From positions 20,739-84,738 of the forward strand of contig JAMLIC010000019.1 in assembly GCA_023954375.1 (NCBI GenBank): DNA of 64,000 nucleotides. Direction: 5' to 3'. The stretch comes from Planctomycetota bacterium. Its GTDB lineage: Bacteria; Planctomycetota; J058. A program made the translations under genes and the position numbers. Shown in pieces: positions 11,317-53,521 of this stretch (position 1 is the first letter of the stretch; every line of letters begins with the position of its first letter). Below the pieces are notes generated by a model. It was not told where the DNA came from, ran no database searches, and worked only from the letters and a program-made list of their open reading frames with translations.

Positions 11317-11320
11317 CGCC

Positions 11321-32068: not shown

Positions 32069-32103
32069 CCCCGCCCGCGGCGCGGGCGGCTAAGATCCGC
32101 CGC

Positions 32104-38961: not shown

Positions 38962-39177
38962 ATGGTCGTCAACCAGAAGAAGCAGCTCCGTCGTCGTCGT
39001 CGCAGCGGTCAGGGCATGACCGAGTACATCATCATCGTCGGGCTGATCGCCATCTGCCTGGTCGCGGCGGTGAAGAACTTCCGTGACGCGGTCGGCACGG
39101 CGTTCGACAAGGGCACGGAGACGATCGACACCGAGATCACCGGCAAGATCGGCGAGGGGCACACCCGCCGTCCCTGA
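38962..39177 (+). CDS. flp: Flp-family prepilin, 71 aa
   Basis: ATG 38962 follows TAGGAGAG. Sequence: MVVNQKKQLRRRRRSGQGMTEYIIIVGLIAICLVAAV.... Confidence 0.85.
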   Translation: MVVNQKKQLRRRRRSGQGMTEYIIIVGLIAICLVAAVKNFRDAVGTAFDKGTETIDTEITGKIGEGHTRRP

Positions 39178-39322
39178 TCTGCCGCGGGTTCGACCGACGG
39201 TCGCGGGTCGCGGAGCGGGCCACCGCCCGCCCCGCGCCGCGTCCACGTAGGCACACCCCTCTCCCGCTCTCGGTCCGCCTGCGGTGGGCGGGCCGGGGGC
39301 GGAACCACCCCGGGAGCGCGTG

Positions 39323-39877
39323 ATGGGTACCGTGGAGGCGGTCTTCGACCTCATCCGGGTGGCCCTGCTGTTCGTCACCGTCGCGGTCGCCGCGACGACC
39401 GACACCCTCTCCCGGCGCGTCCCCAACGTGGTCACCTACCCCGCCATGGCCCTCGGGCTCGCCCTGGGCTTCGGCATAGGCCAGGTGGGCCTCGACGCGA
39501 GCCTGGCCCAGCACCACCTCCTCAGCCACACCCTGGGCCTCCTCGTCGCCGCCGGGATCTTCCTCATCGCCTGGTGGGCGGGCGGCGTGAAGGGCGGCGA
39601 GGTGAAGCTGGCCGGCGCCGTGGGCGCGCTCGGCGGCCTGCAGTTCGCCGTGGCCGCCATGTTCTGGTCGAGCGTCATCGGCGCGATCATGGCCCTCTGG
39701 CTGCTGCTCCTCCGGGGCCGCCTGCTCGAGGGGCTGCGCCGGTCCGTCCGCTACGCCCTCTTGCTGCGCGCCGACCCGCCGCCCAAGGACGACCCGGCGC
39801 GCCTGTCGATCCCCTACGCGGTGGCGATCGCCTTCGGGACCGTCTGGACGTTCTTCCTCGTGGAGGCCACCCGGTGA
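39323..39877 (+). CDS. A24-family prepilin peptidase (CpaA/TadV-like) with a Glu at the second catalytic position
   Basis: ATG 39323 (Met14 of ORF 39284-39877). The first Asp motif is TTDTLSRRVPN. The second motif reads KGGEVKL where the family has GGGDVKL. Confidence 0.75.
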   Translation: MGTVEAVFDLIRVALLFVTVAVAATTDTLSRRVPNVVTYPAMALGLALGFGIGQVGLDASLAQHHLLSHTLGLLVAAGIFLIAWWAGGVKGGEVKLAGAVGALGGLQFAVAAMFWSSVIGAIMALWLLLLRGRLLEGLRRSVRYALLLRADPPPKDDPARLSIPYAVAIAFGTVWTFFLVEATR

Positions 39878-40521
39878 GCCCCTTCGCCCGCCTGCACCGG
39901 GACGAGGGCGGCCAGGCCATGGTCGAGTTCGTCCTCGTGTTCCCGATCCAGCTCCTCCTGACGCTCTCCGTCATCCAGTTCGCGTTCCTCGCCCACGCCC
40001 ATCTCGTCGTCCAGCAGGCCGCCTTCCTGGGCGCCCGCGCCGCCGCGGTCGCGGACGTGGGCCGGGGCGGGTTCACCGACGGGCGCGCCTGGCAGGTCGC
40101 CGGGAACCAGGTCGCCCGCCGGGTGGCGGCCCGCACCTGCGGCGTGCTCAGCTCCAACATGCCCATCGACGGGGAGGCCAGCGTCGACCAGGACGACCGG
40201 GCCGCCATGCGCTGGACCTCGTCGGAGGGGGGCACGGTCGGGTACTCGGAGCGGCGGATCCAGGAGGCCTTCAGGCACCTGGACGTGACGTTCACGCCGC
40301 ACCCGCAGGAGGGCTACGTCGCCTGCACCGTCAACTACGACTACGTGATGACGATCCCGGTCGCGAACCACATGTTCGCCAAGGCCCAGTTCATGCTCGA
40401 CTTCCGCGGGGGCGGCGACACGAACGCCTACAGGACCGAGGCGCAGCAGCGCCAGTGGACGGTCTTCCGCGTCAGGCAGGTGGCCTTCATCTCCACGCCG
40501 TGGACCAGGGAGCTCCGATGA
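39874..40521 (+). CDS. tadE: TadE-like pseudopilin
   Basis: GTG 39874 overlaps the upstream TGA. N-terminal GQAMVEFVLVFPIQLLL. Confidence 0.8.
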   Translation: MSPFARLHRDEGGQAMVEFVLVFPIQLLLTLSVIQFAFLAHAHLVVQQAAFLGARAAAVADVGRGGFTDGRAWQVAGNQVARRVAARTCGVLSSNMPIDGEASVDQDDRAAMRWTSSEGGTVGYSERRIQEAFRHLDVTFTPHPQEGYVACTVNYDYVMTIPVANHMFAKAQFMLDFRGGGDTNAYRTEAQQRQWTVFRVRQVAFISTPWTRELR

Positions 40522-42410
40522 TCGGCCTCTCGCGCCTCCGCGCCGGCGCCCGGCGCCTCCACGAGGACGAGGAGGGCGCCGCGCTCGTCTTCGCGGTCAT
40601 CACCCTGTTCTCCCTGGCGCTCCTGGTGTTCATGGTCTTCCAGGTCGGCCTCGTGAGCGCCGACCGCCTGCAGATCCAGACCGCCGCGGACGCCGCCGCC
40701 TACTCCGGGGCGCAGGTCGAGGCGAACTCGCTCAACGCGATCGCGCAGCTCAACGACGGCATGACGTACGTCCACTACGCCACGCTGCGCTACGTGCTGG
40801 ACAACATCGTCTACGGGACGCTCAACACGTTCACCACGCACCCCCAGTGGCTCCGGCAGAACGACTCGACCAACCTCCTCGGCCAGAGCCCGCGCGGCGT
40901 CGTGCCCGGCGGCTGGGCGAAGGAGTACGGACCGGACATCCTCAACGAGCCGGCCCCCCCCTGGGTGATGCTCGGCAACGAGAGCGAGTGGGAGGAGCGC
41001 TGGAAGGCCGTCGAGAGCAACGGCCGGGCGGCGGTCACCGAGGGCAAGCGCTGGCTCCTCGAGCTGAACGCCGCGGCGCACCTGATCATGCAGAAGACGC
41101 CCGAGCTCGTGCGCGAGAGGGCGGCCGAGATCGCCTTCCTCAACGGGGCGTCGCACGTGGCGATCTCGAGCGACCTCGAGCACGCGTTCAAGGCGAACCG
41201 GGACGGCAGCGACGAGGCGGGCTTCGTCGCCGCCCAGGGCGACCGCGAGGGCGAGGTGGCGGCCGCGCTCCCGCACCGCTACGAGGCGCGGCGGATCAAG
41301 GTCGACGACACGCCGCGCAGGCTGGTCGGGCCGAGCACCTGGTTCGACCCGCGGACCGGCAAGCGGGTGGGGGCGGGCTACTCCCAGGTGCGGATCTGCT
41401 GGAGCCGCGCCGACTGGGCCCACCGCGGCGGCGGCCAGCCCGACCTGCACATGGACCAGGACTCGCGCCTGCGGCGCTGGTACATGACGCCCAACGGCCA
41501 CTGGCACGCCCACCACGAGCACGTGTGGCTCGAGTACGACGAGAACGGCTTCCCGCGCGTGGAGCGGGACACCCACGGCGGCCTCGAGGGCTCGGGCAGC
41601 GGCCCGGTCCGCGAGAAGCAGTGCATGGGCGGCGGCGTGGGCGGCGGCCACATGGTCCCGACCGACGACGATCCGGAGATGCACCTCAAGGTGCAGATGG
41701 GCGGCTGGGGCCTCGACCCGTTCACGAGCAACCCGCTGCACCACGCCACGATCCGCTGCCCGACCTGCATGAGCAGCGACAGCAGCGCCGTGATGAACGG
41801 GCCGTTCTCGCAGGTCCGCAAGACGCAGGAGCGGGCGGAGCGGGACGGCGGGCTCGTCTACGAGCTCACGTTCGAGGGCGACGACTTCCCGAAGCCGCTG
41901 GTCGCCACGGCGGCGCTCCTGCGCAGCGGCGTGACGGTGGCCACCTGGCGGGAGAGCCACGGGATCGGCGACCTCCTGCCGCGCTCGCGCTGGGGCATGA
42001 TCGCCCTGGCCTCCGCCCAGGTGGGGCTGCTCGACCGTCAGGGGCGCGTCTTCGCCCTCGAGGAGCTCCAGTCCGGGCAGCGGGCCGTCTACGGCCAGGC
42101 GGGCGAGGTCCCGCTCGACATGACGCGAGACTCGCGCTACCGGAACCTCTTCTACTCCCACGACGACTCCCAGCTCCCCGGCGTGCGCTTCGGCGCGCGC
42201 CTGGTCCCCCTGCGGCGTGAGGAGACGCACCACCCCAAGCTGGCGCGGGGGGGCGCCGTCGACGAGCTCCTGCGCGACGGGTCGCGCTGGTGGACGACGG
42301 GCAACGCCTCGGGCGACCAGCAGCAGGGGGCCCCCCCGGGGCTGGACGCCCTGCGCCAGTGGGTCACGTTCAGCGACCTGCGCCACGTCCAGGAGACCCT
42401 GTGGCACTGA
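40518..42410 (+). CDS. tadG: TadG-like large pseudopilin (Tad_N-type N-terminus) with an unrecognised His/Cys-rich C-terminal region
   Basis: ATG 40518 is in an ATGA overlap. EEGAALVFAVITLFSLALLVFMVFQVG...LQIQTAADAAAYSGA. No vWA-like motif was seen by eye. Confidence 0.75.
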   Translation: MIGLSRLRAGARRLHEDEEGAALVFAVITLFSLALLVFMVFQVGLVSADRLQIQTAADAAAYSGAQVEANSLNAIAQLNDGMTYVHYATLRYVLDNIVYGTLNTFTTHPQWLRQNDSTNLLGQSPRGVVPGGWAKEYGPDILNEPAPPWVMLGNESEWEERWKAVESNGRAAVTEGKRWLLELNAAAHLIMQKTPELVRERAAEIAFLNGASHVAISSDLEHAFKANRDGSDEAGFVAAQGDREGEVAAALPHRYEARRIKVDDTPRRLVGPSTWFDPRTGKRVGAGYSQVRICWSRADWAHRGGGQPDLHMDQDSRLRRWYMTPNGHWHAHHEHVWLEYDENGFPRVERDTHGGLEGSGSGPVREKQCMGGGVGGGHMVPTDDDPEMHLKVQMGGWGLDPFTSNPLHHATIRCPTCMSSDSSAVMNGPFSQVRKTQERAERDGGLVYELTFEGDDFPKPLVATAALLRSGVTVATWRESHGIGDLLPRSRWGMIALASAQVGLLDRQGRVFALEELQSGQRAVYGQAGEVPLDMTRDSRYRNLFYSHDDSQLPGVRFGARLVPLRREETHHPKLARGGAVDELLRDGSRWWTTGNASGDQQQGAPPGLDALRQWVTFSDLRHVQETLWH

Positions 42411-43165
42411 CGAGCGAGCCGGGCGACGAGCCGCGCGGGCTGGCCGCCCTGCGTCATCTGCTGGTCGACGACGAGGGCGGCTCGGCCGCCGTCGAGTTCA
42501 TCGTCCTCATCCCGGTCTACGTCATCCTGCTCGCCGGCCTGTTCTCGATGTCGCAGCTCATGCTGGTGCGGCAGCGGGTCGTCATGGCGGCGCGCTACGA
42601 GGCCTGGAGCCCCGGCCACGGGCACGACCCCGAGGCCATGCGCTCGGCGTTCTTCCGCTTCCGCACGGGGGAGTGGAAGAGCACCCCCGATGAGCCCGTC
42701 GACCTCGACCTCAAGCTCGGGGGGTCGGAGCGGGGCCGCGAGCTCGCGGACCTGGTCCTCGAGAACAAGGTCGAGGGGCCCGACCACGCGGGCCATCCGC
42801 TCCGGAAGGTGAAGGTGAAGGGCGCCTTCGAGTGGTCGGGGCTGGTCTTCCTGCTGACCGGCGTCCAGCTCTCGGTGCGGACGGACTCCGCCGTCGTGCT
42901 GACCAACGACCACAAGCGTCCCATGTTCCAGGACGGCATGAGCGACGAGCACCCGATGGTCGGGGCGGTGGCCCTGAGCAACCTGCGGCAGGACGGGGCG
43001 TTCGACCCGATCGGCAAGGGGTTGAGCCCCAACCCCTACCGCTCGCCCGTCTTCGGCACCTTCCGGGAGGGGGGCGCCGACCCGGGGCTCTGGTCGCGCG
43101 ACGCGCGCCTTGGAGGCAACGTCATGGCCGAGCACGGGATCTATCGCCAGAAGATGGGTCAGTGA
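42401..43165 (+). CDS. tadE: Second TadE-like pseudopilin
   Basis: GTG 42401 lies 5 nt after AGGAG and overlaps the tadG end by 10 nt. GGSAAVEFIVLIPVYVILLAGLF. Confidence 0.7.
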   Translation: MALTSEPGDEPRGLAALRHLLVDDEGGSAAVEFIVLIPVYVILLAGLFSMSQLMLVRQRVVMAARYEAWSPGHGHDPEAMRSAFFRFRTGEWKSTPDEPVDLDLKLGGSERGRELADLVLENKVEGPDHAGHPLRKVKVKGAFEWSGLVFLLTGVQLSVRTDSAVVLTNDHKRPMFQDGMSDEHPMVGAVALSNLRQDGAFDPIGKGLSPNPYRSPVFGTFREGGADPGLWSRDARLGGNVMAEHGIYRQKMGQ

Positions 43166-43272
43166 CCCCGCTCGCGGTCCAGAGCTGCAACGGGAGACGA
43201 ATCGCGAGACGGATCTGGAATCGCACGTGACGGTCTGAGGGGCGTGGGGACCGAGTTCATGTATGTTGTGCG

Positions 43273-43288
43273 TGGCCCGGGCCTTGCG
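43273..43288 (+). promoter_or_regulatory. Candidate sigma54 (-24/-12) promoter for the long pilin gene
   Basis: TGGCCCGGGCCTTGCG matches TGGC-N7-TTGC exactly in spacing. It lies ~42 nt upstream of ATG 43330, in a 164-bp gap. Confidence 0.5.
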
Positions 43289-43329
43289 ACAGAGGAAAGA
43301 CGTCACCGGTTCTCGGGAGGATCGCAATC

Positions 43330-43674
43330 ATGATCACGCGGAAGAACTCTCGTCGGCGTCGGCTGGGCCAGGGGATGACCGAGTACGTGGTCATCGTCGG
43401 CCTCATCGGCCTCTGCCTCGTGGTGGCCGTCACGCGCTACGCCACCCAGGTCGAGGTCACGATCATCGGCTCGTCGGAAGAGTTCGACAGGAACAACGTC
43501 GGCTCGAACACCGGCCACAACAGCCGGAACCCGGACGCGCCGCCGCCTCCGGCCGGCACCCGGCCGCCCGCGGAGTGGGGGGAGCCGGACGGCCGCGGCA
43601 TCTACACCCACCCGAACGGCACGACGGGCCGCTGGAACGGCACCTCGATGGACATCATCCGCCCCAACCAGTAG
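43330..43674 (+). CDS. flp: Flp-type prepilin with a ~70-aa C-terminal extension (114 aa)
   Basis: GGGAGG lies upstream. MITRKNSRRRRLGQGMTEYVVIVGLIGLCLVVAV..., then a Pro-rich linker and the tail WGEPDGRGIYTHPNGTTGRWNGTSMDIIRPNQ. Confidence 0.8.
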   Translation: MITRKNSRRRRLGQGMTEYVVIVGLIGLCLVVAVTRYATQVEVTIIGSSEEFDRNNVGSNTGHNSRNPDAPPPPAGTRPPAEWGEPDGRGIYTHPNGTTGRWNGTSMDIIRPNQ

Positions 43675-43680
43675 CCGCGC

Positions 43681-44412
43681 TTGCTCCGCCGCGCCCCCAA
43701 CCTCCTCCTCGGCGCCGCGCTCACCGCGGCGCTCGTCTGGTTCGGGTTCCTGGTCACGGGGACGCGGGTGGACGCCCTCGTCGGCGGGCGGCCGGGGGGC
43801 CTCGCGCCGCTCCCGGGCTCCGAGGCCACCCACACGACAGTGCTCGTCGACGGGCAGCCGACGCGCGTGAGCGACTGCTGGCTGGCCACCCCGCCCGCCG
43901 GCGTCCTGGCCCGCTACGAGGCCCTGGCCGCGGCCGAGTCCCGCGCCAGCGGCGCCCCCTACGTGAAGCAGGAGGAGGCGGCGCTCGGCGGCGGCGTCCT
44001 CGTGTGGCGCGCCCCGGACGGGCGCCGGCGCGCCGTGTTCGTCGAGGCCGACGCGCTCGGCCGCAGCCGCTACCGCCTCCTCGAGGCCGACCCGCCGCGC
44101 GCGCCGACCCGGCGCCTGCCGCGCGGCCTCGAGCCCCCGCCGGGGGTCGAGGTGGTGCTCTCGCTCGAGCGCCCGGGCGGCGGCGGCTTCGCCCTCGTCC
44201 GCTCCCCCGCCCCCGTCCCTGCGGCCGCCGACGCCCTCCTCCGCGCCCTCGCCCGCGACGGCCTGACCGCCGAGCCCGCCGCCCTGGCCCTCCTCATCGC
44301 CGAGGGGACCGTGAGCCTGCCCCTCCAGGGCGCGGACGGCGCCGCCCGGGGGCTCCTGACCGTCGGCCCCGACGGCCAGGGTGGCGCGCGCGCCTCGCTC
44401 ACGCTCGACTAG
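43681..44412 (+). CDS. Hypothetical membrane-anchored protein in the Tad locus
   Basis: 243-aa ORF with a TTG start 6 nt after the pilin stop and an N-terminal TM helix (LLLGAALTAALVWFGFLV). No family recognised. Confidence 0.5.
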   Translation: MLRRAPNLLLGAALTAALVWFGFLVTGTRVDALVGGRPGGLAPLPGSEATHTTVLVDGQPTRVSDCWLATPPAGVLARYEALAAAESRASGAPYVKQEEAALGGGVLVWRAPDGRRRAVFVEADALGRSRYRLLEADPPRAPTRRLPRGLEPPPGVEVVLSLERPGGGGFALVRSPAPVPAAADALLRALARDGLTAEPAALALLIAEGTVSLPLQGADGAARGLLTVGPDGQGGARASLTLD

Positions 44413-44416
44413 GGGG

Positions 44417-44451
44417 CCGTCAGGAGCGAATCGGTGGTTCGATCCTGACGG
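44417..44451 (+). other. Strong hairpin between the pilin sub-cluster and cpaB
   Basis: CCGTCAGGA (44417-44425) pairs with TCCTGACGG (44443-44451), and an inner CGAA/TTCG extension is possible. It starts 5 nt after the stop at 44412. No U-tract. Confidence 0.4.
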
Positions 44452-44562
44452 CGCACCACCGGGCCCGGAGGGCCCGACGCGAGCGGGCGCAGGCGCGGCC
44501 CCTGCGCCTCCGGCGCGCTGGGCCGGCGCCCGCGTGGTTGTTAGGGTAGGAAGGGAGTCGCC

Positions 44563-45300
44563 GTGACCAACAAGCTCGCCCTCCTCGTCGCGGTCGCGCT
44601 GGGCGTCCTCTCGATCGTGGGCATCCGGCTCTACGTCGACAAGCTGGAGAAGCAGCAGCGCCTGGAGAAGAACCTCGTCGACGTCCTCATCGCCTCCCGC
44701 GACATCCAGGCCGGGCGGACGATGACCCGCGAGGACATCGAGATCGGGCAGTTCCCGGCCGCCTTCATGGAGGCGGCCTTCCGCAAGTCGAACGTCGGCG
44801 ACCTGAACACGATCGTCGGCGAGCGGACCGTCGAGCCGATCGCGGCGGGGCAGGTCCTGCAGCAGTACCACTTCAAGAAGCGGGAGCTGCGCCGGTTCAA
44901 CTTCGACAAGGAGTACCGGGCGATCACGATCCCGATGAACCGCGTCGGCGGCGTGGGCGGCCTGCTCCGCCCGGCGGACCAGGTCGACGTGCTCGTCAAC
45001 TCGCAGCTCTCCGACCAGACCGGCGCCCAGGTCACCGTGACGCGCGCCCTGTTCCGCAACGTGCTGATCCTGGCGCTCGACGGCAACACCGACCCGTTCG
45101 TCGACTTCGGCGGCTACGCGACGGTCACGCTGCGCCTGCGGCCCGAGGACTGCAACAAGCTCGCCTTCTGCCTCTACAACGGCGCGGCGATCCACCTGAC
45201 CTACGTGCAGCCCGGCACCCCGGAGCCCACCGGCTTCGACCCGGCGGTGGCGAACGACCTCTGGCGGGACATCAAGCAGGAGCTCCAGCAGCGGCGCTGA
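44563..45300 (+). CDS. cpaB: CpaB/RcpC-like Flp pilus assembly protein (SAF domain)
   Basis: 245 aa with a GTG start after GGAAGGGAG, an N-terminal TM helix, VLIASRDIQAGRTMTREDI (SAF-like) and a CpaB-type C-terminal domain. Confidence 0.85.
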   Translation: MTNKLALLVAVALGVLSIVGIRLYVDKLEKQQRLEKNLVDVLIASRDIQAGRTMTREDIEIGQFPAAFMEAAFRKSNVGDLNTIVGERTVEPIAAGQVLQQYHFKKRELRRFNFDKEYRAITIPMNRVGGVGGLLRPADQVDVLVNSQLSDQTGAQVTVTRALFRNVLILALDGNTDPFVDFGGYATVTLRLRPEDCNKLAFCLYNGAAIHLTYVQPGTPEPTGFDPAVANDLWRDIKQELQQRR

Positions 45301-45312
45301 GGAGGATCACGC

Positions 45313-47019
45313 GTGGCCTCGCTCATCGTCCGGGACACCAAGAACGGCCGCGTCAAGGAGGTGGAGCTCGCCAAGCGCCGCTTCACCGTCGGGCGCAGCG
45401 ACTGGAACGACCTCGTCCTGCCGCGGGACAGCGTCTCGCGCGAGCACTGCGTGGTGTTCGAGAAGGACGGCGGCTTCTTCGTCCGGGACCTGGGGTCGCG
45501 CGCGGGCACCGTGGTCGACGGGCAGCCCATCACCGGCGACGTGGCCCTGAAGGACGGGGTGCGCTTCGAGGTGGGCGAGTTCGAGTGCCAGTTCCGCGGG
45601 CAGCGCCAGCGCACCGGGCCCGACGACGAGCGCAAGGGCTCGGGGGTCGAGGCAGGCGGGCGGGCCGAGGTGCGGGCGATCAGCGGCGCCGGCGGCCCGG
45701 GCGAGGCGATGCGCGAGGCGAAGAAGCTCGTGCACCAGCTCCTGCTCGAGGCCAAGGAGCTGAAGCGCATCGACTTCGAGTCGACCCCGGGCGCCGAGGC
45801 CCGGCGCATGACCGAGCGGGTGGTCGTGCAGGTCATCAAGGACCTCGAGGAGCAGAGCAAGCTGCCCACGGCCCAGATCGACCGGCGCCGGCTGCTCAAG
45901 GAGGTCCTCGACGAGGCGCTCGGGCTCGGCCCGCTCGAGGAGCTCCTCGCCGACGACTCGATCTCCGAGATCATGGTCAACCGCTGGGACCAGATCTACA
46001 CCGAGAAGCGCGGCGTGGGCATGGTCCTGGCCCCCGTGCAGTTCACGTCGAACGACCAGGTGCTGCACGTCATCCGGCGCATCGTCGCGCCGATCGGCCG
46101 GCGCGTGAACGAGCAGTCGCCCCTCGTCGACGGGCGCCTCGCCGACGGCTCGCGCATCAACGCGATCATCCCGCCGCTCGCCGTCTCGGGCCCCAGCCTG
46201 ACGATCCGGAAGTTCCCCAAGGACCGCCTGGGCGTCCAGGACCTGATCAAGTTCGGCTCCATGACCCAGGAGATGGGCAAGTTCCTGGAGATCGCGGTCC
46301 GCGAGCGCCTGAACATCTGCATCAGCGGCGGCACGGGCTCCGGCAAGACGACGCTCCTCAACGTCGTCTCGAGCTTCATCGGCAAGCAGGAGCGGATCGT
46401 GACCGTCGAGGACGTGTCGGAGCTGCGCCTGCCGCAGGACCACGTCGTGACGCTCGAGACGCGCCCGGCCAACCTCGAGGGGCAGGGGGCGATCCACATC
46501 CGCGACCTGGTGAAGAACTGCCTGCGCATGCGCCCCGACCGCATCGTCGTCGGCGAGTGCCGCGGCGGCGAGGCGCTGGACATGCTCCAGGCCATGAACA
46601 CCGGCCACGACGGCTCGCTGACCACGATCCACAGCAACTCGCCGCGCGACTGCATCGCGCGCCTCGAGACGCTCGTGCTCATGGCCGGCATGGACCTGCC
46701 GTCGCGCGCCATCCGCGAGCAGATCGCGTCGGCCGTGCACCTGATCATCCAGCAGAGCCGCCTGCACGACGGCTCGCGCAAGGTCACGGCGATCACGGAG
46801 GTGACGGGGATCGAGAGCGGGGTGGTCACCCTGCAGGACATCTTCGTCTTCCAGCAGACGGGCTTCGACGAGAAGCACAAGGTGATCGGGTACCACGATG
46901 CCACGGGCAACGTGCCCAAGTTCGTGCAGCAGCTGAAGCGCCGCGGGATCGACGTCGACCTGAGCATCTTCACCCGGCGCCATCAGGCCGAGGACGGGCC
47001 GCGGAGGCGCCGCGGATGA
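45313..47019 (+). CDS. cpaF: CpaF/TadA-type secretion ATPase with an N-terminal FHA domain
   Basis: FHA: FTVGRSDWNDLVLPRDSVSREHCVVF...GSRAGTVVDGQPI. ATPase: Walker A GGTGSGKTT, Asp box, Walker B RPDRIVVGECRG, His box TGHDGSLTTIHSNS. Confidence 0.9.
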   Translation: MASLIVRDTKNGRVKEVELAKRRFTVGRSDWNDLVLPRDSVSREHCVVFEKDGGFFVRDLGSRAGTVVDGQPITGDVALKDGVRFEVGEFECQFRGQRQRTGPDDERKGSGVEAGGRAEVRAISGAGGPGEAMREAKKLVHQLLLEAKELKRIDFESTPGAEARRMTERVVVQVIKDLEEQSKLPTAQIDRRRLLKEVLDEALGLGPLEELLADDSISEIMVNRWDQIYTEKRGVGMVLAPVQFTSNDQVLHVIRRIVAPIGRRVNEQSPLVDGRLADGSRINAIIPPLAVSGPSLTIRKFPKDRLGVQDLIKFGSMTQEMGKFLEIAVRERLNICISGGTGSGKTTLLNVVSSFIGKQERIVTVEDVSELRLPQDHVVTLETRPANLEGQGAIHIRDLVKNCLRMRPDRIVVGECRGGEALDMLQAMNTGHDGSLTTIHSNSPRDCIARLETLVLMAGMDLPSRAIREQIASAVHLIIQQSRLHDGSRKVTAITEVTGIESGVVTLQDIFVFQQTGFDEKHKVIGYHDATGNVPKFVQQLKRRGIDVDLSIFTRRHQAEDGPRRRRG

Positions 47020-47924
47020 GCCACGACCTCCTCCTGGCCCTGCCGCTCCTGGCGCAGGTCGACGACGGCAGCCGGGTGCTCCTGCACCTGGTGACGCTGC
47101 TCGGCGGCCTGGGCATGTTCGTGTTCGTGTTCGTGGGCTACCTGCTCTTCTCGTCGGGGTGGGAGAGCTACGAGGAGAAGTACATCGAGGGCGCCGAGCG
47201 GACGCTCGACGACCTGTTCCTCACCATCCCGCCGCAGCAGCTCCTGTGGCTGACGATCCTGGGCGGCTTCGGCATGCTCACCGTCGTGTTCGTCCTCACC
47301 GACAGCCTGCTCGTCGGCGCCGCCGCGGCGCTGCCGGGGGGCCTGGCGCCCCGGGTGGCGCTGGCGTTGCTCAGGCGCGCCCGCCACAAGAAGTTCAACG
47401 AGCAGCTGGTCGAGTCCATGGTCACGATGACCAACGCCCTGCGCAGCGGCGTCGCCCTGCCCAAGGCCTTCCAGATCGTGGCCCACGACATGCCCAAGCC
47501 GATCTGCCAGGAGTTCGGCATCCTCGTCCAGGAGATGCGCCTCGGCATGGACGTGGAGGAGGCCATGGAGAGCATGCTCGAGCGCATGCCCGGCCAGGAC
47601 CTCCAGCTCGTGTGCACGTCCGTCGGCATCTCGAACTCGGTCGGCGGCAACCTGGCCGAGGTGTTCGAGCGCCTGGCGGAGACGATCCGCGAGCGCTACC
47701 GCATCGAGGGGCGCATCGACGCGCTCACCGCGCAGGGCAAGATCCAGGGGCTCATGGTCTCGGTCCTGCCCATCTTCGTGGGCATCATGATCTACTTGAT
47801 CGAGCCGGGGATGATGAGCCTCATGTTCACGCGCGTGGAGGGCTGGGTGGTCCTTGGCGTGATGGTGGTCATGGAGGGCCTCGGGTTCTTCTTCGTCCGC
47901 AAGGTGACGACGATCGAGGTCTGA
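47016..47924 (+). CDS. tadB: TadB-like inner-membrane platform protein (T2SSF domain)
   Basis: ATG 47016 is in an ATGA overlap. It has TM helices flanking a cytoplasmic T2SSF-like region (LRSGVALPKAFQIVAHDMP...QEMRLGMDVEEAM). Confidence 0.8.
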   Translation: MSHDLLLALPLLAQVDDGSRVLLHLVTLLGGLGMFVFVFVGYLLFSSGWESYEEKYIEGAERTLDDLFLTIPPQQLLWLTILGGFGMLTVVFVLTDSLLVGAAAALPGGLAPRVALALLRRARHKKFNEQLVESMVTMTNALRSGVALPKAFQIVAHDMPKPICQEFGILVQEMRLGMDVEEAMESMLERMPGQDLQLVCTSVGISNSVGGNLAEVFERLAETIRERYRIEGRIDALTAQGKIQGLMVSVLPIFVGIMIYLIEPGMMSLMFTRVEGWVVLGVMVVMEGLGFFFVRKVTTIEV

Positions 47925-47927
47925 GCC

Positions 47928-48815
47928 ATGCCGCTCGAGTTGCTCGGCCTGTCGCTGTTCTTCGCCTTCGCCGTGGGGCTGCTCGCCTTCACGGTGATCG
48001 TGGACATCCTCACGATCAAGGAGGAGGCCCAGGCGCAGGACGAGCTCTTCTCGCAGAGCCCGCTGTTCAAGCTCGCCCTCCCCTTCGTCCAGCACATCGG
48101 GCGGGCCATCTCCGGCGTGCGGCTCTTCGACGGGATGCGCCGCGACATCTCCACGAAGCTCGTCCGCGCCGGCAAGGCCGACACGATCACCCCGGACGAG
48201 TTCATCGGGTTCATGCTCGTCAGCGGGTGCGTCGGCGCCGTGGTCGGGCTCTACTTCGACCTGATGATCGACGTCGGCGGGGCGGCGATCCTGGCCTTCG
48301 CCCTCCTCGTCATGGCCCTGCCGCTCCTCTCGCTCGGCGAGACGATCAAGCGCCGGCAGCACTCGATCCGCAAGCTGCTGCCCTACACGCTCGACCTCCT
48401 GTGCCTCGCCGTGGAGGCGGGCCTCGACTTCACCGCCGCGCTCAACCGGATCGCCGACAACCTCGACCGCTCGCCCTTCCGCGACGAGCTGCGCACGCTC
48501 TCGCGCGACCTCTCCATGGGCAAGACCAGGCCCGAGGCCCTGCGCGACATGGAGAAGCGGATCGGCCTCGAGGAGCTGACGTCCGTGGTGACCGCGCTGA
48601 TCCAGGCCGACGAGCTGGGCGCGAGCCTCGGGCCGACGCTCCGCATCCAGTCGCGCGAGCTCCAGCGCAAGCGCTTCCAGCGGGCCGAGAAGAAGGCCAT
48701 GCAGGCCCCCGTGCTCATGCTCATCCCGCTCGTGCTGTTCATCTTCCCGCTGGTGTTCCTCGTGATCTTCGCGCCCATGGCCCTCCAGATCCTCGACCAG
48801 GGGCTCTTCTTCTGA
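47928..48815 (+). CDS. tadC: TadC-like inner-membrane platform protein (T2SSF domain)
   Basis: 295 aa. LPYTLDLLCLAVEAGLDFTAALNRI...LSMGKTRPEALRDM. Confidence 0.8.
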   Translation: MPLELLGLSLFFAFAVGLLAFTVIVDILTIKEEAQAQDELFSQSPLFKLALPFVQHIGRAISGVRLFDGMRRDISTKLVRAGKADTITPDEFIGFMLVSGCVGAVVGLYFDLMIDVGGAAILAFALLVMALPLLSLGETIKRRQHSIRKLLPYTLDLLCLAVEAGLDFTAALNRIADNLDRSPFRDELRTLSRDLSMGKTRPEALRDMEKRIGLEELTSVVTALIQADELGASLGPTLRIQSRELQRKRFQRAEKKAMQAPVLMLIPLVLFIFPLVFLVIFAPMALQILDQGLFF

Positions 48816-49201
48816 TGCGGCTGGTGCGGGAGCGCGACGGGGCGGTGGTGGCCGACGAGGTGGAGCTCGCCGCGTCGTTCCTGCGCCGCCTCCGCGGCCT
48901 CATGGGGCGGCGCGCGCTCCCCCCCGGGCGCGGGCTGTGGCTCGAGCCCTGCGCGAGCATCCACATGATGTTCGTGCCCTTCTCCATCGACGTCCTGTTC
49001 GTCACGCGGCGCGGCGACCGGCCCCTGGGCCCGGGCGCCCGGGCCGAGGTGCTCGAGGTCGCGCCGCGGGTGCGGCCGTGGGTGGGGCTGGCCTGGTGCG
49101 CCGGCGCCTTCGGCGCGGTGGGCGCCATCGAGGTCGCCGCCGGTCGGGCGGGCGACCTGGGGGTCGCGCCGGGCGACCTCCTGACCCTGGAGGCCGCATG
49201 A
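48815..49201 (+). CDS. DUF192-family protein
   Basis: The ATG 48815 overlaps the tadC TGA by 1 nt. ASFLRRLRGLMGRRALPPGRGLWLEPCASIHMMFVPFSIDVLFV matches the DUF192 pattern. Confidence 0.7.
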   Translation: MRLVRERDGAVVADEVELAASFLRRLRGLMGRRALPPGRGLWLEPCASIHMMFVPFSIDVLFVTRRGDRPLGPGARAEVLEVAPRVRPWVGLAWCAGAFGAVGAIEVAAGRAGDLGVAPGDLLTLEAA

Positions 49202-50916
49202 AGACGGCGACCGCGCCCTGCCTGGAGATCCTCACCGGCGACCTCTCGGGGCGGCGCTACCGCGTCGAGGACGCGGAGTTCGTCATCGGGCGGGCGCCGA
49301 CCTGCGACCTCGTGCTGCCCAAGCGCTACATCTCGCGCGAGCACGCGCGGATCTCGCGGGCCGGCCGCGACTACGTCATCGAGGGGCTCTCGGAGAAGAA
49401 CCCGGTGACGCTCCGGGGGCGCCCGGTGCGCCCCGGCCACCGCCTCGAGGACGGGCAGGAGTTCGAGGTGTGCGGCATCCGGTTCCGCTTCCTCGCCCAG
49501 GCGGAGGTCGCCGGCGGCCGACGGCCGGCGAAGGAGACGGACGACTCCTGGGCCTCGGACCCGGACTTCGGCCGCCCCGAGCAGCGGCCCGGCCAGCGCT
49601 CCGACCCGGGCGAGGCCAGCGGCGACTCGGGCGAGCGCCCGCGCGGCCGCGACCTGCGCGACGAGTCGGCGGCCCCGCCGCGCGGCCTGCCGGTCGAGGA
49701 CGACGACGCGACGCCCCCGCCGCGCCGCCACGCGCGCGGGCCGAGCGAGGACGACCTCCCCGTCCCGGTCCGCGGCTCGGGGGCGGTCAAGCGCTCGGCC
49801 CCGGGCAAGGTCGTGTTCGACGCCGAGCCCGAGGGCGACGACGACTCCGAGGAGCGGACCGCCGAGCTCCCCGCGGTGGGGAGCAGGGCCGGCGGCGGCA
49901 GCCGCGAGTCGCAGAACGAGCGCACGGCGGAGCTGGGCAAGGTCAAGGACCCCAACGACCCCGACTACGACCCGTTCGCCGAGGTCGACCGGCGCAAGAA
50001 GGAGGAGAAGAAGGGCGACCCCGGGCGCGAGAAGGCGCTCCGCGCCCTCATGGTGCTCGGCGCCGGGGGGATCCTCCTGGCCGCGGTCATCATCTACAAG
50101 ACGCAGCAGAAGAAGCCCTACGTCCTCGAGCGCCACACCGGGGTCATCCGCGTCGCGATCGACCAGACGGTCCGCTTCGAGGAGCCGTGGTCGCAGGTGG
50201 ACCCCCCGCAGGGGCGCCGGACCACCCCGCTCGACGGGGAGCCGTACTTCTTCCACCGCGACCGGGTGGCGGACGTCGAGTGGGCGGTGCCCCACGTGAA
50301 GACCAAGTGCATCTTCCTCATCCGCGGGATCGAGCCGGGCGCGATGGAGTTCGACCTCGTCTTCCCCGAGAGCCGCCGGGTGAAGCGCTTCACGGTCGAG
50401 GTCGAGGGCGACAACCCCCACGACGTCGCGCGCGAGCGGCGGCGCGCCGAGATGAAGGGCAAGGTCAGCGCGCACCAGCTGCGCCAGAAGGCCGAGGCCC
50501 ACATGGCCTCGGGCGAGACCTACGTGAAGGAGCGCGACATCACCGCGCGCGAGGGCAACTACCGGCTGGCCGTCATCGAGTTCACGCGGGCCGTCGACTC
50601 CGCCGTCCTCCTCCGCGACCAGCTCGCGCAGGGCGGGATCGTCCCGGGCGACGTGGCCGAGCTGGTGCGGCGGGCGGAGGACGCCGAGGCCAAGGCGCGC
50701 AACGACTACGACGAGTTCGTCCACCGCGAGCTGGCGAAGTACCGGGCGACGCTGCAGAAGAACACCACCTTCGAGCGCGTCGAGCAGCTGAAGCGGACGC
50801 TGCGGGCGATCAACCACGAGTGCGACCTCCGGTTCATCCGCCTGAAGCTGATCCTCCAGAACAGCTTCAACGGCACGTGGACGGGCGGCGGCGGCGAAGT
50901 CTGCACGGAGCGTTGA
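49198..50916 (+). CDS. FHA-domain membrane protein (FHA, disordered linker, TM helix, ~290-aa extracytoplasmic domain)
   Basis: ATG 49198 is in an ATGA overlap. FHA: FVIGRAPTCDLVLPKRYISREHARI. TM helix: ALMVLGAGGILLAAVIIY. Confidence 0.8.
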   Translation: MKTATAPCLEILTGDLSGRRYRVEDAEFVIGRAPTCDLVLPKRYISREHARISRAGRDYVIEGLSEKNPVTLRGRPVRPGHRLEDGQEFEVCGIRFRFLAQAEVAGGRRPAKETDDSWASDPDFGRPEQRPGQRSDPGEASGDSGERPRGRDLRDESAAPPRGLPVEDDDATPPPRRHARGPSEDDLPVPVRGSGAVKRSAPGKVVFDAEPEGDDDSEERTAELPAVGSRAGGGSRESQNERTAELGKVKDPNDPDYDPFAEVDRRKKEEKKGDPGREKALRALMVLGAGGILLAAVIIYKTQQKKPYVLERHTGVIRVAIDQTVRFEEPWSQVDPPQGRRTTPLDGEPYFFHRDRVADVEWAVPHVKTKCIFLIRGIEPGAMEFDLVFPESRRVKRFTVEVEGDNPHDVARERRRAEMKGKVSAHQLRQKAEAHMASGETYVKERDITAREGNYRLAVIEFTRAVDSAVLLRDQLAQGGIVPGDVAELVRRAEDAEAKARNDYDEFVHRELAKYRATLQKNTTFERVEQLKRTLRAINHECDLRFIRLKLILQNSFNGTWTGGGGEVCTER

Positions 50917-50918
50917 AC

Positions 50919-53318
50919 GTGCGTTTGATCTACCAGCGCGGCGACGAGCGCATCGCCTTCCCCATCGACGAGGGGGAGACGTTCATCGGGCGCAAGGACG
51001 ACTGCGACATCTACTTTCCGGACTCGAGCCTCTCGAAGCGCCACGCCCGGCTCGTGCGGCGCGGCCGCTCGCTCACCGCCTACGACGCCGGCTCGAAGAA
51101 CGGCACGATGGTCAACGGCGAGCTGATCCGCGGCGCCACCCCGCTCGGGAGCGGCGACGTCCTCGAGTGCGGGAAGCTGGCCTTCCGCGTCGAGGGCGTC
51201 GGCGAGGGGGACTTCGACATCGTGGAGGACGAGGGCCGGAGCCGCCCCTCGCGCGGGTCGGCCCCGGTCGCGAAGGCCGTGCGCAGCGGCGAGGTGCGCG
51301 GGTCCGTCCTCGACGAGTTCCCGGAGATGCCGCGCTCGGGCGAGCTCCAGGCGCCGGGCGCCCAGGCGAGCCCGCGCGCCCGCTTCCGCCTGGTCGAGGG
51401 CGGCCCGGAGCGCACGTGGGAGCTGACCGAGGGCCAGACGGCCACCGTCGGCTCGAAGCCGGAGAACGCGATCGTCCTCACCGGCGAGGGGATCTCTCGC
51501 TACCACGCGGAGGTGGTGCACGAGGGCGGCAAGTGGCTGCTCAAGGACCTCGGGGCGCGCAACGGCCTGTTCGTCGCCGGCAAGAAGATCGACATCCACG
51601 AGCTGAACGAGGGCGACGAGGTGCAGATCGGCACGGCGAGGCTGCGCTTCGAGGTCGTGCGGCCCTCGCCGCTCCTCGAGGTCCAGCAGCTGGTCGCCCA
51701 GCTCAAGGCCGACCCGGTGGGCACCTTCAAGCGCGAGCCGCGGGTGCGCATGGCGGCGGCCAGCCTCATCGCGGGGCTGTTCCTGCTGTTCATGGCCCTG
51801 CCCGCGGGCGACGAGCAGCGCCGCGGCGGCTACACGGGCGACCTCGCGTGGATCGACGAGGGCACGGCCAAGCTCCTCGCCGGCGAGACCCGGGAGGCGC
51901 GCGACATCTTCCGCCGGGCCCAGGCCAAGCCGAGCACCACGAAGGAGCTCCAGGAGGTGGCCCGCACGCTCACGACGATGACGAACCACTGGGTCGAGCT
52001 CGACAAGGGCGCGCTCCAGTTCCGCTGGGGCCGCGCCGAGGAGCTCCTGCTCGACTGCGCCAGGCTGCCGAACCTCCCCACCTCCCTCCAGGAGTGGATC
52101 ACCGCGCAGATGGGCTCGGTGCGCATGAACAAGGAGGCCTACGACAAGCTGGGCGAGGCCGAGCAGCTCGGGGCCGGCGCCGTGCAGCTGGCGCAGGAGA
52201 AGAAGTTCCGCGAGGCGCTGCGGCGCTTCGAGGCGACCACCCTCCGCTACGGCGAGGTCCACGCCCAGAGCGTCTACGGCCCGCGCGCCGCCGAGCAGGC
52301 GCGCGCCCTGCGCGGGCAGGTGTTCAAGATGGTCCTCGACGAGGCGAACGCCCTCATGCGCGTGCCCTCGCCCGACTGGCAGGGCGTCGTCAGCTTCATC
52401 GACCAGGGCAACGCCTACGCCGACACCCCCGAGCAGCGCATGGAGCTGCGGCGGCTCAAGGAGGTGTGCGAGACCAACCTGCGCGACGAGGAGCTCTACC
52501 AGCGCGGCGTGGACATCGTCGCCGTCCGCGACGTGGAGAACTACCCCACCGCCACGCAGCTCTTCGAGCGGATCGACCGCCGGTCGCGCATCTACCCCGA
52601 CGCGCAGGCCTACATCCAGTGGATCGACGCCGACCTGAAGGTGCGGCAGGCGCAGCGCGCCTACGAGACCGGCGACGCGAAGCGCGCCTTCACGCTGCTG
52701 AGCGAGGCGCTCCAGCACGAGGTCCTGGGCCCCGAGGCGCGCAACAGCGTGCGCACGCGCCGGACGAACTGGGGGCGCGTCTACACGGCCTACACCCGCG
52801 GCATCGAGGCGGAGGACCCGAAGGAGGCGCGGGAGGAGCTGCTCCGCGTGATCCAGCTCGAGCCGAGCCAGGCCAACGTCTACCACAAGCGGGCGCTCGA
52901 CCACCTGCGCCACCTGCAGCGCCTCGACAACATGAACCTCGAGGGCAAGCTGCGCGAGGGGATCGCCGCGCTCGAGGCCGGCGAGTACGACCGCGCCTGG
53001 CGCATGTTCGAGGCCGTGCAGGCCGACCCGAACAAGCAGCCGCGCGACGTGCAGCGCATCCAGGAGGCGGTCGTCAACGCCAACCGCTCGCGGCGCCTCC
53101 TCCACCACGCGCAGCAGGACTTCATCCGCGACCGCCAGGAGCGGTTCCTCGAGATCTACTACATCACCTACATCCTGCGCGGCTGGCTGCCGCAGACCGA
53201 GCGCGCCGCGCGCACCGAGGCGGACCAGCTGTTCGGGCACGTGGTCAAGCGCCTGAAGCTCCTGCACAAGCTGGCGGAGGACACGGGGACGATCCCGGGG
53301 GGCCCCCGGCCGCGGTAG
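50919..53318 (+). CDS. Double-FHA membrane protein with a TPR-like extracytoplasmic domain
   Basis: GTG 50919 lies 2 nt after the upstream stop. FHA1: FIGRKDDCDIYFPDSSLSKRHARL...GSKNGTMVNG. FHA2: TVGSKPENAIVLTGEGISRYHAEV...GARNGLFVAG. TM helix: AAASLIAGLFLLFMAL. The ~510-aa C-terminus is helical-repeat-like. Confidence 0.8.
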   Translation: MRLIYQRGDERIAFPIDEGETFIGRKDDCDIYFPDSSLSKRHARLVRRGRSLTAYDAGSKNGTMVNGELIRGATPLGSGDVLECGKLAFRVEGVGEGDFDIVEDEGRSRPSRGSAPVAKAVRSGEVRGSVLDEFPEMPRSGELQAPGAQASPRARFRLVEGGPERTWELTEGQTATVGSKPENAIVLTGEGISRYHAEVVHEGGKWLLKDLGARNGLFVAGKKIDIHELNEGDEVQIGTARLRFEVVRPSPLLEVQQLVAQLKADPVGTFKREPRVRMAAASLIAGLFLLFMALPAGDEQRRGGYTGDLAWIDEGTAKLLAGETREARDIFRRAQAKPSTTKELQEVARTLTTMTNHWVELDKGALQFRWGRAEELLLDCARLPNLPTSLQEWITAQMGSVRMNKEAYDKLGEAEQLGAGAVQLAQEKKFREALRRFEATTLRYGEVHAQSVYGPRAAEQARALRGQVFKMVLDEANALMRVPSPDWQGVVSFIDQGNAYADTPEQRMELRRLKEVCETNLRDEELYQRGVDIVAVRDVENYPTATQLFERIDRRSRIYPDAQAYIQWIDADLKVRQAQRAYETGDAKRAFTLLSEALQHEVLGPEARNSVRTRRTNWGRVYTAYTRGIEAEDPKEAREELLRVIQLEPSQANVYHKRALDHLRHLQRLDNMNLEGKLREGIAALEAGEYDRAWRMFEAVQADPNKQPRDVQRIQEAVVNANRSRRLLHHAQQDFIRDRQERFLEIYYITYILRGWLPQTERAARTEADQLFGHVVKRLKLLHKLAEDTGTIPGGPRPR

Positions 53319-53332
53319 CGCCGGAAGACCAA

Positions 53333-53418
53333 CCACGGAGGACACGGAGGACACGGAGGAGAGCTCCCGGAGAGCGATCTCCATGTTCTTTCCTCCGTGT
53401 CCTCCGTGTCCTCCGTGG
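53333..53418. repeat. Perfect 28-bp inverted repeat (30-nt spacer); each arm is built from three 9-mers (ACGGAGGAC)
   Basis: Arm 53333-53360 is CCACGGAGGACACGGAGGACACGGAGGA. Arm 53391-53418 is its exact reverse complement. The spacer contains a GGAGA/TCTCC mini-hairpin. The element sits between convergent gene ends. Confidence 0.95.
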
Positions 53419-53521
53419 TGAATTCTTGGGTTCGGTTGCGGCCGTCAGGCTGCCCTGCGAACGAACGCTGCGCCTCCATCGCGACCTCTGCGTCCAATCG
53501 AGTGTGGATGAGGACGGCCGA

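Follow-up and report, generated by a model that had tools for sequence, protein, structure and literature searches.

Beyond Caulobacter, in which TadZ/CpaE and polarity of the PleC type are at work, the switching of the Tad pilus in place and time is poorly understood. The question arises afresh for a Tad operon that closes with two genes, here called A and B, each encoding FHA and outer domains on either side of a single transmembrane (TM) helix: what might such proteins do beside a pilus motor? We propose that the pair probably links a periplasmic sensing module to phosphothreonine (pThr)-reading domains beside the motor, and that it probably represents a new variation on the FHA-rich Tad machines that have been described in predatory Myxococcus. 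To our knowledge, the many FHA proteins of the Myxococcus Kil system are still unexplained. The operon described here is a compact, one-locus FHA-rich Tad machine in which all the FHA partners and candidate pThr motifs adjoin two novel periplasmic domains that were modelled with confidence.

Gene structure and the end of the operon

Within the window (the whole 64-kb stretch of DNA that was analysed), the operon comprises flp, cpaA, tadE/G, rcpC, FHA-cpaF, tadB, tadC and a gene for a DUF192 protein, with genes A and B at its end (Table 1). The layout of its ATPase, an N-terminal FHA domain followed by the ATPase domain, is the class III architecture of PMC12019362. Pfam/NCBIfam annotation of the window genes yielded no secretin in the operon or the window, and no TadZ/CpaE was found in either.

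Genes A and B are strongly coding, because GC content at third codon positions reaches 0.99-1.0 in exactly their frames. The junctions are tight: the tadC stop overlaps the DUF192 start by 1 nt (TGATG), the DUF192 stop overlaps the gene A start by 4 nt (ATGA), and 2 nt separate the gene A stop from the GTG start of gene B, just as the earlier note had claimed for a pair ending the Tad operon after tadC and DUF192. Support for the start at 50919 comes from 39 homologues that begin with MRLIY; alternative starts at 50913 (TTG) and 50877 (GTG) are ruled out by the same residues. The hairpin that follows the gene B stop after 14 nt has no second example in the window, and it is probably a bidirectional terminator that closes the operon.

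Table 1. Features at the end of the Tad operon, in window positions (res, residues of the encoded protein)
Feature	Positions	Strand	Remarks
FHA-CpaF (class III Tad ATPase; N-terminal FHA + T2SSE ATPase)	45313..47019	+	Pfam T2SSE 5.9e-61, FHA 1.6e-17
tadB, T2SSF platform protein	47016..47924	+	Pfam T2SSF 4.7e-18
tadC, T2SSF platform protein	47928..48815	+	Pfam T2SSF 4.9e-22
DUF192 protein, between tadC and gene A	48815..49201	+	Pfam DUF192 1.1e-14; synteny
Gene A, 572 aa: FHA, disordered acidic linker, TM, Ig-like domain and helical bundle	49198..50916	+	
Gene A FHA domain, res 1-100	49198..49497	+	GR, SxxH, S..N pThr-binding residues invariant, n=36 sequences
Gene A cytoplasmic disordered linker, res 101-280	49498..50037	+	net acidic, length varies, acidic D-S-W motif
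First ERTAEL motif, T221	49852..49869	+	Thr in 35/36 sequences; +3 is L/V/M; candidate pThr docking site
Second ERTAEL motif, T243	49918..49935	+	Thr invariant; +3 Leu in 33/36; candidate pThr docking site
Juxtamembrane box DPNDPDYDPFA, nearly invariant	49948..49980	+	
Gene A TM helix, res 281-303	50038..50106	+	
Gene A outer Ig-like 7-strand beta-sandwich, res 309-402	50122..50403	+	AF2 pLDDT 94.5
Gene A outer six-helix bundle, res 407-556	50416..50865	+	AF2 model
Gene B, 799 aa: FHA1, linker, FHA2, TM, TPR-like solenoid	50919..53318	+	
Gene B FHA1, res 1-93	50919..51197	+	GR / SKRH / GSxNGT invariant, n=40 sequences
Gene B FHA2, res 155-247	51381..51659	+	non-canonical: invariant G-S-K for G-R; loop GARNG
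Gene B TM helix, res 278-296	51750..51806	+	
Gene B outer all-alpha TPR-like solenoid, 21 helices, res 310-788	51846..53282	+	AF2 pLDDT 92.2
Long perfect hairpin between convergent genes	53332..53419	.	dG -78.9 kcal/mol, z -12.4

Both proteins match the Pfam FHA model PF00498 (cut-off 20.7 bits), gene A with E=7.8e-13 and 49.1 bits over residues 29-90, and gene B with E=2e-35 and 121.4 bits over two domains. Each has a single TM-like hydrophobic segment, at residues 281-299 in A and 278-296 in B, and no signal peptide, and gene B has no lipoprotein signal either; coordinates, Pfam matches and hydrophobic segments thus agree with the earlier description of two reading frames with one and two FHA domains and one TM helix each. 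The domain layout given there stands as well, although the lengths do not: the gene A linker spans about 180 aa and not 200, its outer region 273 and not 290, and the outer region of gene B 503 aa against about 510. Because each protein has one TM helix and no signal peptide, the FHA domains are placed in the cytoplasm. The same topology, already assumed in the earlier note, is borne out by anti-sigma relatives with the same domain order (see below) and by an outer cysteine pair, Cys542 in the last bundle helix and Cys569 in the C-terminal tail of gene A, which co-occur strictly (both present in 29 sequences, neither in seven).

Conservation, phosphothreonine residues and outer domains

All known members of the gene pair come from uncultured Planctomycetota MAGs, and 11 of 185,579 species genomes carry it. 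A profile of the gene A outer region, about 270 residues that follow a single TM segment, matched only 59 of 1.84 billion (1.84e9) protein representatives, 38 of them at E<=1e-30. The pair is more than a chance arrangement, since there are about 38 full-length homologues of each gene and the gene order is conserved: RcpC-FHA-CpaF-TadB-TadC-DUF192-A-B recurs, at 27-87% identity, in every Tad locus whose sequence extends far enough. Proximity to Tad genes was found in all relatives with sufficient flanking sequence, down to 27-30% identity, which supports the earlier note on this point. The exception is a distant genome (L085) that has one A-like and two B-like genes with no Tad gene within about 8 kb.

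Every canonical pThr-contact residue is kept in the FHA domain of gene A and in FHA1 of gene B, across 36 and 40 sequences, respectively. Measured against the same residue set (GR, SxxH, S/T-x-N), gene B FHA2 and the FHA domain of CpaF fall short; in the window the latter reads GSRAGT, with Ala at the position of the conserved Asn. Because FHA2 lacks the key Arg and the CpaF domain has Ala, phosphate may be dispensable for binding by some of these FHA domains. The classical FHA ligand pattern is pT-x-x-L/I/V, and T221 and T243 of gene A fit it because each has a hydrophobic residue at +3. The window contains at least three, and probably four, Ser/Thr kinase genes, among them 12047-14020, 14034-16007 and 29681-32068, all at least 15 kb from the pair and not conserved in relatives, and across the relatives' loci no conserved kinase or phosphatase was found in or beside the operon. 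For this reason the link to phospho-signalling is one that we infer. The earlier suggestion of transmembrane scaffolds coupling cytoplasmic phospho-signalling to the periplasmic part of the machine accordingly holds in part: invariant pThr residues and cytoplasmic FHA domains agree with it, whereas no kinase or phosphatase is conserved and a passive scaffold is less favoured.

That no family could be recognised for the outer domains is upheld by the PDB, Pfam, NCBIfam and Foldseek searches, which gave nothing specific. A PDB sequence search returned no significant match for either domain, no specific PDB, Pfam or NCBIfam family was matched, and in the NCBIfam scan of both proteins every match was below cut-off and limited to FHA or TPR. 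Foldseek searches of the PDB with the models returned generic Ig matches for gene A (TM-scores <=0.25) and generic TPR proteins for the gene B solenoid (TM-score <=0.2). At the level of these predicted structures a specific structural relative, the ring-building motifs of SctD included, is rejected.

A different kind of evidence comes from a Pfam scan of ten relatives that are distant or atypical. Six have an N-terminal FHA domain, two match no Pfam family, and two (P0131 and P0148) have an anti-sigma zinc finger, identified by Pfam in P0148 and by reading of the sequence in P0131. P0131 is a fusion of the zinc finger, one TM helix, the gene A outer domain (E 9e-30) and, from gene B, the C-terminal part of the solenoid (E 3e-34). 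Its gene comes directly after an ECF sigma gene, and the same arrangement is seen for P0148. These zf-HC2 ECF anti-sigma factors resemble gene A in having its type of outer domain after a single TM helix, and differ from it in having a cytoplasmic zinc finger in place of FHA and an ECF sigma neighbour in place of a Tad operon. Because both outer domains occur in P0131, they share one extracytoplasmic compartment, and the fusion suggests, from sequence, that the outer domains of A and B work together. Its joining to an anti-sigma domain implies that the outer module is used as a signal input; this reuse points to a sensing or ligand-binding role rather than a purely structural, passive scaffold and provides an independent clue to sensing by the outer domains. 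The anti-sigma fusion family is tiny, with three clusters only.

Candidate mechanism and rival explanations

Gene structure, domains, synteny, confident folds, motifs and the anti-sigma fusion of the outer domains are observed, and around them we place a reading to which, taken whole, we give an even chance: A and B are bitopic proteins of the inner membrane, each with a cytoplasmic N-terminus and an external C-terminus, they are lineage-specific accessory subunits of a class III FHA-CpaF Tad machine, and they act as a sensor-adaptor that controls FHA-CpaF. Outside the membrane, the Ig-like sandwich and bundle of gene A and the solenoid of gene B would form one periplasmic binding or sensing module, and inside, the three FHA domains of the pair would be presented beside that of the CpaF motor. 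The disordered acidic tail of gene A, with its two conserved E-R/K-T-x-x-L threonine motifs and the DPxDPDYDPFA box at the membrane, would serve as the substrate of a Ser/Thr kinase encoded elsewhere. The FHA domain of CpaF and/or those of gene B, or those of neighbouring copies of gene A, could then dock on the phosphorylated threonines, so that CpaF would join the TadB/TadC platform, stay there or leave it, depending on the signal of the outer module. In this scheme we infer the A-B interaction, the threonine phosphorylation, the pairing of FHA domains with ligands, the direction of signalling and the cue. If such a relay is true, the threonine-phosphorylation logic of the T6SS would extend to type IV filament machines, and a new periplasmic sensor module would be defined. 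It is also conceivable, though we hold the idea tentatively and with some doubt, that A and B form a heteromeric outside-in sensor of an envelope or contact cue (e.g., pilus load, a surface or another cell), with the Tad motor switched by a pThr-FHA relay on the gene A tail and the module rewired to an ECF/anti-sigma output. In that event, the outer domains would constitute a portable, previously unknown periplasmic sensor pair common to a pilus machine and transcriptional control.

Several observations count against a sensor-adaptor: the A-like and B-like genes of L085 lie away from Tad genes, no kinase is conserved, the anti-sigma family is small, and tight translational coupling suits stoichiometric structural subunits equally well. 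Such static subunits might build an inner-membrane ring or alignment complex with a role like that of SctD (T3SS), PilM/N/O (T4aP) or TadZ docking, in which phosphate-independent FHA modules would hold the CpaF hexamer and the outer domains would bridge to RcpC and the outer envelope. The coupling of the genes at the end of a structural operon fits this explanation, as do an FHA-TM-periplasmic layout like that of SctD (the Pfam Yop-YscD_cpl model also scores), the lack of TadZ/CpaE in the operon and of a conserved kinase nearby, and the departure of gene B FHA2 and the CpaF FHA from the pThr-binding consensus. We nevertheless consider it unlikely: the pThr-contact residues are all invariant in the FHA domain of gene A and in FHA1 of gene B, in contrast to general reports on SctD-type FHA domains, the conserved T-x-x-L motifs resemble ligands, the outer folds (Ig-like plus helix bundle, and TPR solenoid) are not ring-building motifs, and the same outer domains occur in signalling proteins, the ECF anti-sigma factors.

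Those anti-sigma factors, which act through ECF sigma factors, could also be enlisted for a signalling module that is merely co-transcribed with the pilus and has its output elsewhere, in gene expression, envelope stress or cell polarity, and so could L085 and the Myxococcota proteins with two FHA domains, a TM helix and TPR repeats outside Tad loci. Yet the pair sits behind tadC-DUF192 in all other loci, at 27-87% identity, the ATPase of the same operon has its own FHA domain, and the Myxococcota proteins share with gene B the tandem FHA part only, which together leave an output elsewhere distinctly improbable. Least probable of all, and by our estimate very improbable indeed, is a role for gene B as a TPR pilotin of the TadD/PilF kind, or as a tether to peptidoglycan or the outer membrane, in aiding the assembly of an outer-membrane channel. 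Its large periplasmic TPR-like solenoid, with BamD and other TPR lipoproteins among the weak Foldseek matches, would suit such a role, but those matches are generic (TM-score <=0.2), the protein has an inner-membrane anchor and two cytoplasmic FHA domains in place of a lipoprotein signal peptide, and neither the operon nor the window has a secretin gene. A sensor-adaptor that controls FHA-CpaF remains our preferred reading.

Comparison with known systems

TadZ/CpaE and TadD are, like the pair, accessory parts that position or assemble the machine, and TadD has TPR repeats. The earlier note suggested that the pair may functionally replace TadZ/TadD-type components, a proposal that finds no support here in view of the lack of a ParA-like domain, of a lipoprotein signal and of an operon secretin for a pilotin to serve. 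The ParA/MinD-like P-loop ATPase of TadZ/CpaE is absent from A, B and all operon genes (Pfam, NCBIfam), and unlike the TadD/PilF pilotin, gene B joins its TPR-like fold to an FHA N-terminus with no signal peptide or lipobox. SctD/YscD/PrgH of the T3SS inner-membrane ring has the same succession of cytoplasmic N-terminal FHA fold, one TM helix and periplasmic domain, but the latter consists of three ring-building motifs, in contrast to the Ig-like domain and helical bundle of A and the TPR solenoid of B. Matches to SctD/YscD (TIGR02500, 22.4 bits vs cut-off 86) and to GltG of gliding motility (NF033760, 37.8 bits vs cut-off 650) cover the FHA domain only.

Four Myxococcota proteins (P0045, P0089, P0092 and P0096) resemble gene B in their tandem FHA domains, which align in register (hhalign probability 99.9 over residues 11-272), and in a TM helix followed by a helical-repeat C-terminal region; unlike in gene B, their FHA2 is canonical (GR). 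They were rejected as gene B orthologues, as the profile-profile match covers the tandem FHA only, the outer region has no detectable similarity and the loci are non-Tad. Two side observations concern other FHA genes: P0107, named TadA, is an FHA protein in an unrelated gene context, and L028 (Hyalangium) has small tandem FHA ORFs.

The T6SS is activated when Fha binds a phosphothreonine on TssL, a membrane protein (PMC3953482). The PpkA/PppA/Fha/TssL pathway is like the proposed relay in that an FHA domain docks on pThr in the cytoplasmic part of a bitopic subunit and an envelope-spanning machine is switched on, and T6SS Fha proteins also have long disordered regions. The machine is a different one, with kinase and phosphatase encoded in the T6SS cluster and none in the Tad operon here, and matches to TagH/Fha (TIGR03354), confined to the FHA domain, reached 34.5 and 58.5 bits where the cut-off is 120.

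The Tad-like Kil system of Myxococcus xanthus contains the FHA-KilF ATPase, KilD (FHA+TPR), MXAN_3104 (FHA) and MXAN_4648 (FHA+TPR) (PMC8460266, PMC12075869). The gene for KilD follows that for FHA-KilF. Killing requires the protein, which is recruited early and forms clusters on contact with prey, upstream of the core machine (PMC8460266). Both systems thus have an ATPase with an N-terminal FHA domain, several FHA proteins and, downstream of the ATPase gene, a gene for an FHA+TPR protein, here gene B; KilD (MXAN_3108) was compared by its description. KilD is described as cytoplasmic, in contrast to gene B with its TM helix and extracytoplasmic solenoid. The Kil genes form two clusters and include a secretin, whereas the Planctomycetota locus is one operon without secretin, and nothing in Kil corresponds to the gene A outer domain. 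Among known systems, KilD/KilF of Myxococcus and the Fha-TssL pathway of the T6SS are the pair's closest analogues.

Operon layout and distribution

The window is extremely GC-rich (68-83%), and because third-position GC in real genes is about 1.0, its reading frames are unambiguous. Local GC reaches 80-83% at 8001-14000 and 30001-36000, with third-position GC of about 1.0 in most genes there, an extreme that is unusual among Planctomycetota genomes. The Tad operon spans about 38962 to 53318 on the + strand (see table), and the description in the earlier note of two FHA genes ending it was correct, with small length differences only. At the operon end, tadC and DUF192 overlap by 1 nt (TGATG), DUF192 and gene A by 4 nt (ATGA), and 2 nt separate gene A from gene B. 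Beyond gene B lies a perfect hairpin, occurring once in the window, whose arms are built from about three tandem copies of the 9-mer GGACACGGA; with a convergent RNase II gene on its other side, it marks the end of the operon at gene B. The 114-aa Flp-like protein makes a second pilin-like gene inside the operon, and the 243-aa protein has no Pfam or NCBIfam match, yet is kept in all related operons. Two tandem GAPDH paralogues (36419-37426 and 37444-38469) lie directly 5' of the operon.

Kinase genes, Tad operon, and terminal hairpin in the window
Feature	Position	Strand	Details
Kinase motif, probably a fourth Ser/Thr kinase gene	near 11786	-	
Ser/Thr kinase	12047-14020	-	
Ser/Thr kinase	14034-16007	-	
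Ser/Thr kinase	29681-32068	+	
Flp pilin	38962-39177	+	weak
Prepilin peptidase A24	39284-39877	+	
TadE	39874-40521	+	
TadG-like protein	40518-42410	+	630 aa
TadE-like protein, second	42401-43165	+	
Flp-like protein	43330-43674	+	114 aa
Protein without family	43681-44412	+	243 aa
RcpC/CpaB	44563-45300	+	
FHA-CpaF	45313-47019	+	
TadB	47016-47924	+	
TadC	47928-48815	+	
DUF192	48815-49201	+	
Gene A	49198-50916	+	572 aa
Gene B	50919-53318	+	799 aa
Perfect hairpin	53332-53419		~32 bp; 14 nt 3' of gene B stop; dG -78.9 kcal/mol, z -12.4

Neither a secretin (CpaC/RcpA) nor TadZ/CpaE was found in the operon, in the related loci L001-L015, or in the 64-kb window. Planctomycetota are diderm, and the operon is secretin-less despite this. 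The earlier proposal that the two proteins stand in for TadZ or TadD was not supported: TadZ is ruled out for both proteins, which have no ParA-like domain, and TadD for gene B, which lacks a lipoprotein signal and has no secretin partner in the window.

For each gene, a search of 5.8 billion clustered proteins recovered about 38 homologues over the full length, solely from metagenomes or MAGs labelled Planctomycetota. When one genome per species was scanned (185,579 species), full-length relatives of gene B occurred in 11 genomes only, all Planctomycetota MAGs, and other matches were confined to FHA domains. The order RcpC, FHA-CpaF (the Tad motor ATPase with an N-terminal FHA), TadB, TadC, DUF192, A, B is kept wherever a locus has enough upstream DNA, and it persists from 87% down to 27-30% identity; L086, a yet more distant relative from the profile search, has the same RcpC-to-B order. 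In some genomes (L009, 12412-14631; L085, 11457-15944) gene B is followed immediately by a second paralogue. The sole exception to the order is locus L085, in which one A-like gene is grouped with two B-like genes and no Tad gene occurs within ~8 kb of them. The pair is real and is conserved within a narrow lineage that is uncultured.

Anatomy and topology of the two proteins

Gene A, dissected in a 36-sequence alignment, contains a single FHA domain by Pfam (E 7.8e-13), with invariant GR, SxxH, and S..N residues; in FHA domains these form the signature of phosphothreonine binding (PMC4858521, citing Mahajan 2008). The disordered, net-acidic linker that follows varies from 117 to 279 residues; distant homologues (e.g., P0027, P0029, P0031-P0037) carry up to 10-11 acidic-Trp motifs (D-D/S/G-W) and net charges down to -32, and the window protein has a single such motif, DDSW. 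Three conserved islands lie just before the membrane: one with a VVF motif; a second with two E-R/K-T-x-x-L motifs, represented in the window protein by the hexapeptide ERTAEL at residues 219-224 and 241-246 (T243 invariant, T221 in 35 of 36 sequences, the +3 residue L, V, or M); and a nearly invariant DPxDPDYDPFA box. After the only hydrophobic helix (281-299), the 273-residue outer domain is modelled very confidently by AlphaFold2 (pLDDT 94.5, pTM 0.88) as an Ig-like sandwich of seven strands and, after it, a bundle of six helices. Foldseek against the PDB returned only generic Ig-like domains, none below E 1e-3, and a PDB sequence search gave no match.

Gene B has two Pfam FHA domains (E 2e-35). 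FHA1 is fully canonical and invariant across 40 sequences; in FHA2, G-R is replaced by G-S-K without exception and the Asn loop reads GARNG, and its phosphate binding may be atypical. The only hydrophobic helix of gene B (278-296) precedes a predicted 503-residue all-helical solenoid of 21 helices (pLDDT 92.2), for which Foldseek found only generic TPR proteins at TM-scores ≤0.2; beyond FHA, Pfam and NCBIfam gave only faint TPR signals.

Both proteins are predicted to be N-in, C-out because they have no signal peptide, a folded FHA from residue 1, and a single TM helix. Two independent observations agree. Cys542 and Cys569 of gene A strictly co-occur (both in 29 sequences, neither in 7), as expected if they form a disulfide in an oxidising compartment; the other observation comes from anti-sigma relatives.

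Outer domains in ECF anti-sigma factors

Only 59 proteins among 1.84 billion representatives matched a profile built on the outer domain of gene A (E≤1e-3). Ten of these, mostly the weakest-scoring, were scanned with Pfam: six retained an N-terminal FHA, and two (P0110 and P0149) had no Pfam family. The N-terminus of P0148 carries a zf-HC2 anti-sigma zinc finger and a RING-like finger; P0131 has no Pfam match, and reading its sequence gives a similar Cys-rich finger. P0131 (1146 aa; L090 1336-5357) is a natural four-part fusion, in a family of three clusters only: the zinc finger, one TM helix at about 157-178, a region matching the outer domain of gene A at 32% identity (E 9e-30), and another matching the C-terminal portion of the gene B solenoid at 32% identity (E 3e-34). 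The genes for P0131 and P0148 each lie directly 3' of a gene for an ECF sigma factor and overlap it at the ends. Planctomycetes MAG proteins P0160-P0162 (~1010 aa, with an STN domain, PF07660) match ~12% of P0131 at 43% identity; the common region is probably the zinc finger, which hints at further rewiring of the cytoplasmic finger.

An anti-sigma domain has to reach a sigma factor that is cytoplasmic, and this places the outer domains outside the cytoplasm. By the Rosetta-stone argument from their fusion in P0131, both probably function together. The module has served in evolution as the input part of a protein that signals across the membrane, which makes sensing or ligand binding a likelier role than pure architecture.

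A putative sensor-adaptor and known systems

Genes, domains, folds, motifs, synteny, and fusion are shown for the pair, which most likely forms a sensor-adaptor for the Tad motor. The joined periplasmic module of A and B would bind or sense something in the envelope; the threonine motifs on the cytoplasmic tail of gene A would be phosphorylated by a kinase encoded elsewhere and read by the FHA domains of CpaF, gene B, and gene A, and this reading would govern CpaF recruitment or activity at the TadB/TadC platform. The earlier idea of transmembrane coupling is partly upheld, by the topology, synteny, and anti-sigma fusion; we infer the phosphorylation, binding partners, A-B contact, signalling direction, and cue. 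The mechanism is weakened by two points: two of the four FHA domains (FHA2 of gene B and that of CpaF) deviate from the consensus, and no kinase or phosphatase near the operon is conserved in relatives. The window kinases, at least three and probably four, of which two are adjacent paralogues and one has C-terminal TPR repeats, are candidates for the FHA network but are not kept beside the operon in relatives; the nearest ends >6 kb 5' of the flp pilin gene and ~17 kb 5' of gene A. These hypotheses are clear and testable, and the host lineage is uncultured.

FHA-CpaF is the recognised class III Tad ATPase architecture (PMC12019362). In Myxococcus, KilD (FHA+TPR), encoded after FHA-KilF, is required for killing and forms clusters on contact with prey, also when the core machine is absent (PMC8460266); by published description KilD is a cytoplasmic protein, whereas gene B has a TM helix. 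In the T6SS, binding of Fha to a phosphothreonine of the membrane protein TssL activates secretion (PMC3953482). The pair would work like the Kil and T6SS FHA relays. Models of SctD, TagH, and GltG score over the FHA only, far below cut-offs. Myxococcota 2xFHA-TM-TPR proteins have only the tandem FHA in common with gene B (hhalign probability 99.9, residues 11-272) and, unlike it, sit outside Tad loci. The pair lies outside every named family, and we rate it as belonging with FHA-regulated Tad-like machines, a known kind, to which it brings two periplasmic domains that are novel and, unexpectedly, a link to ECF anti-sigma factors.
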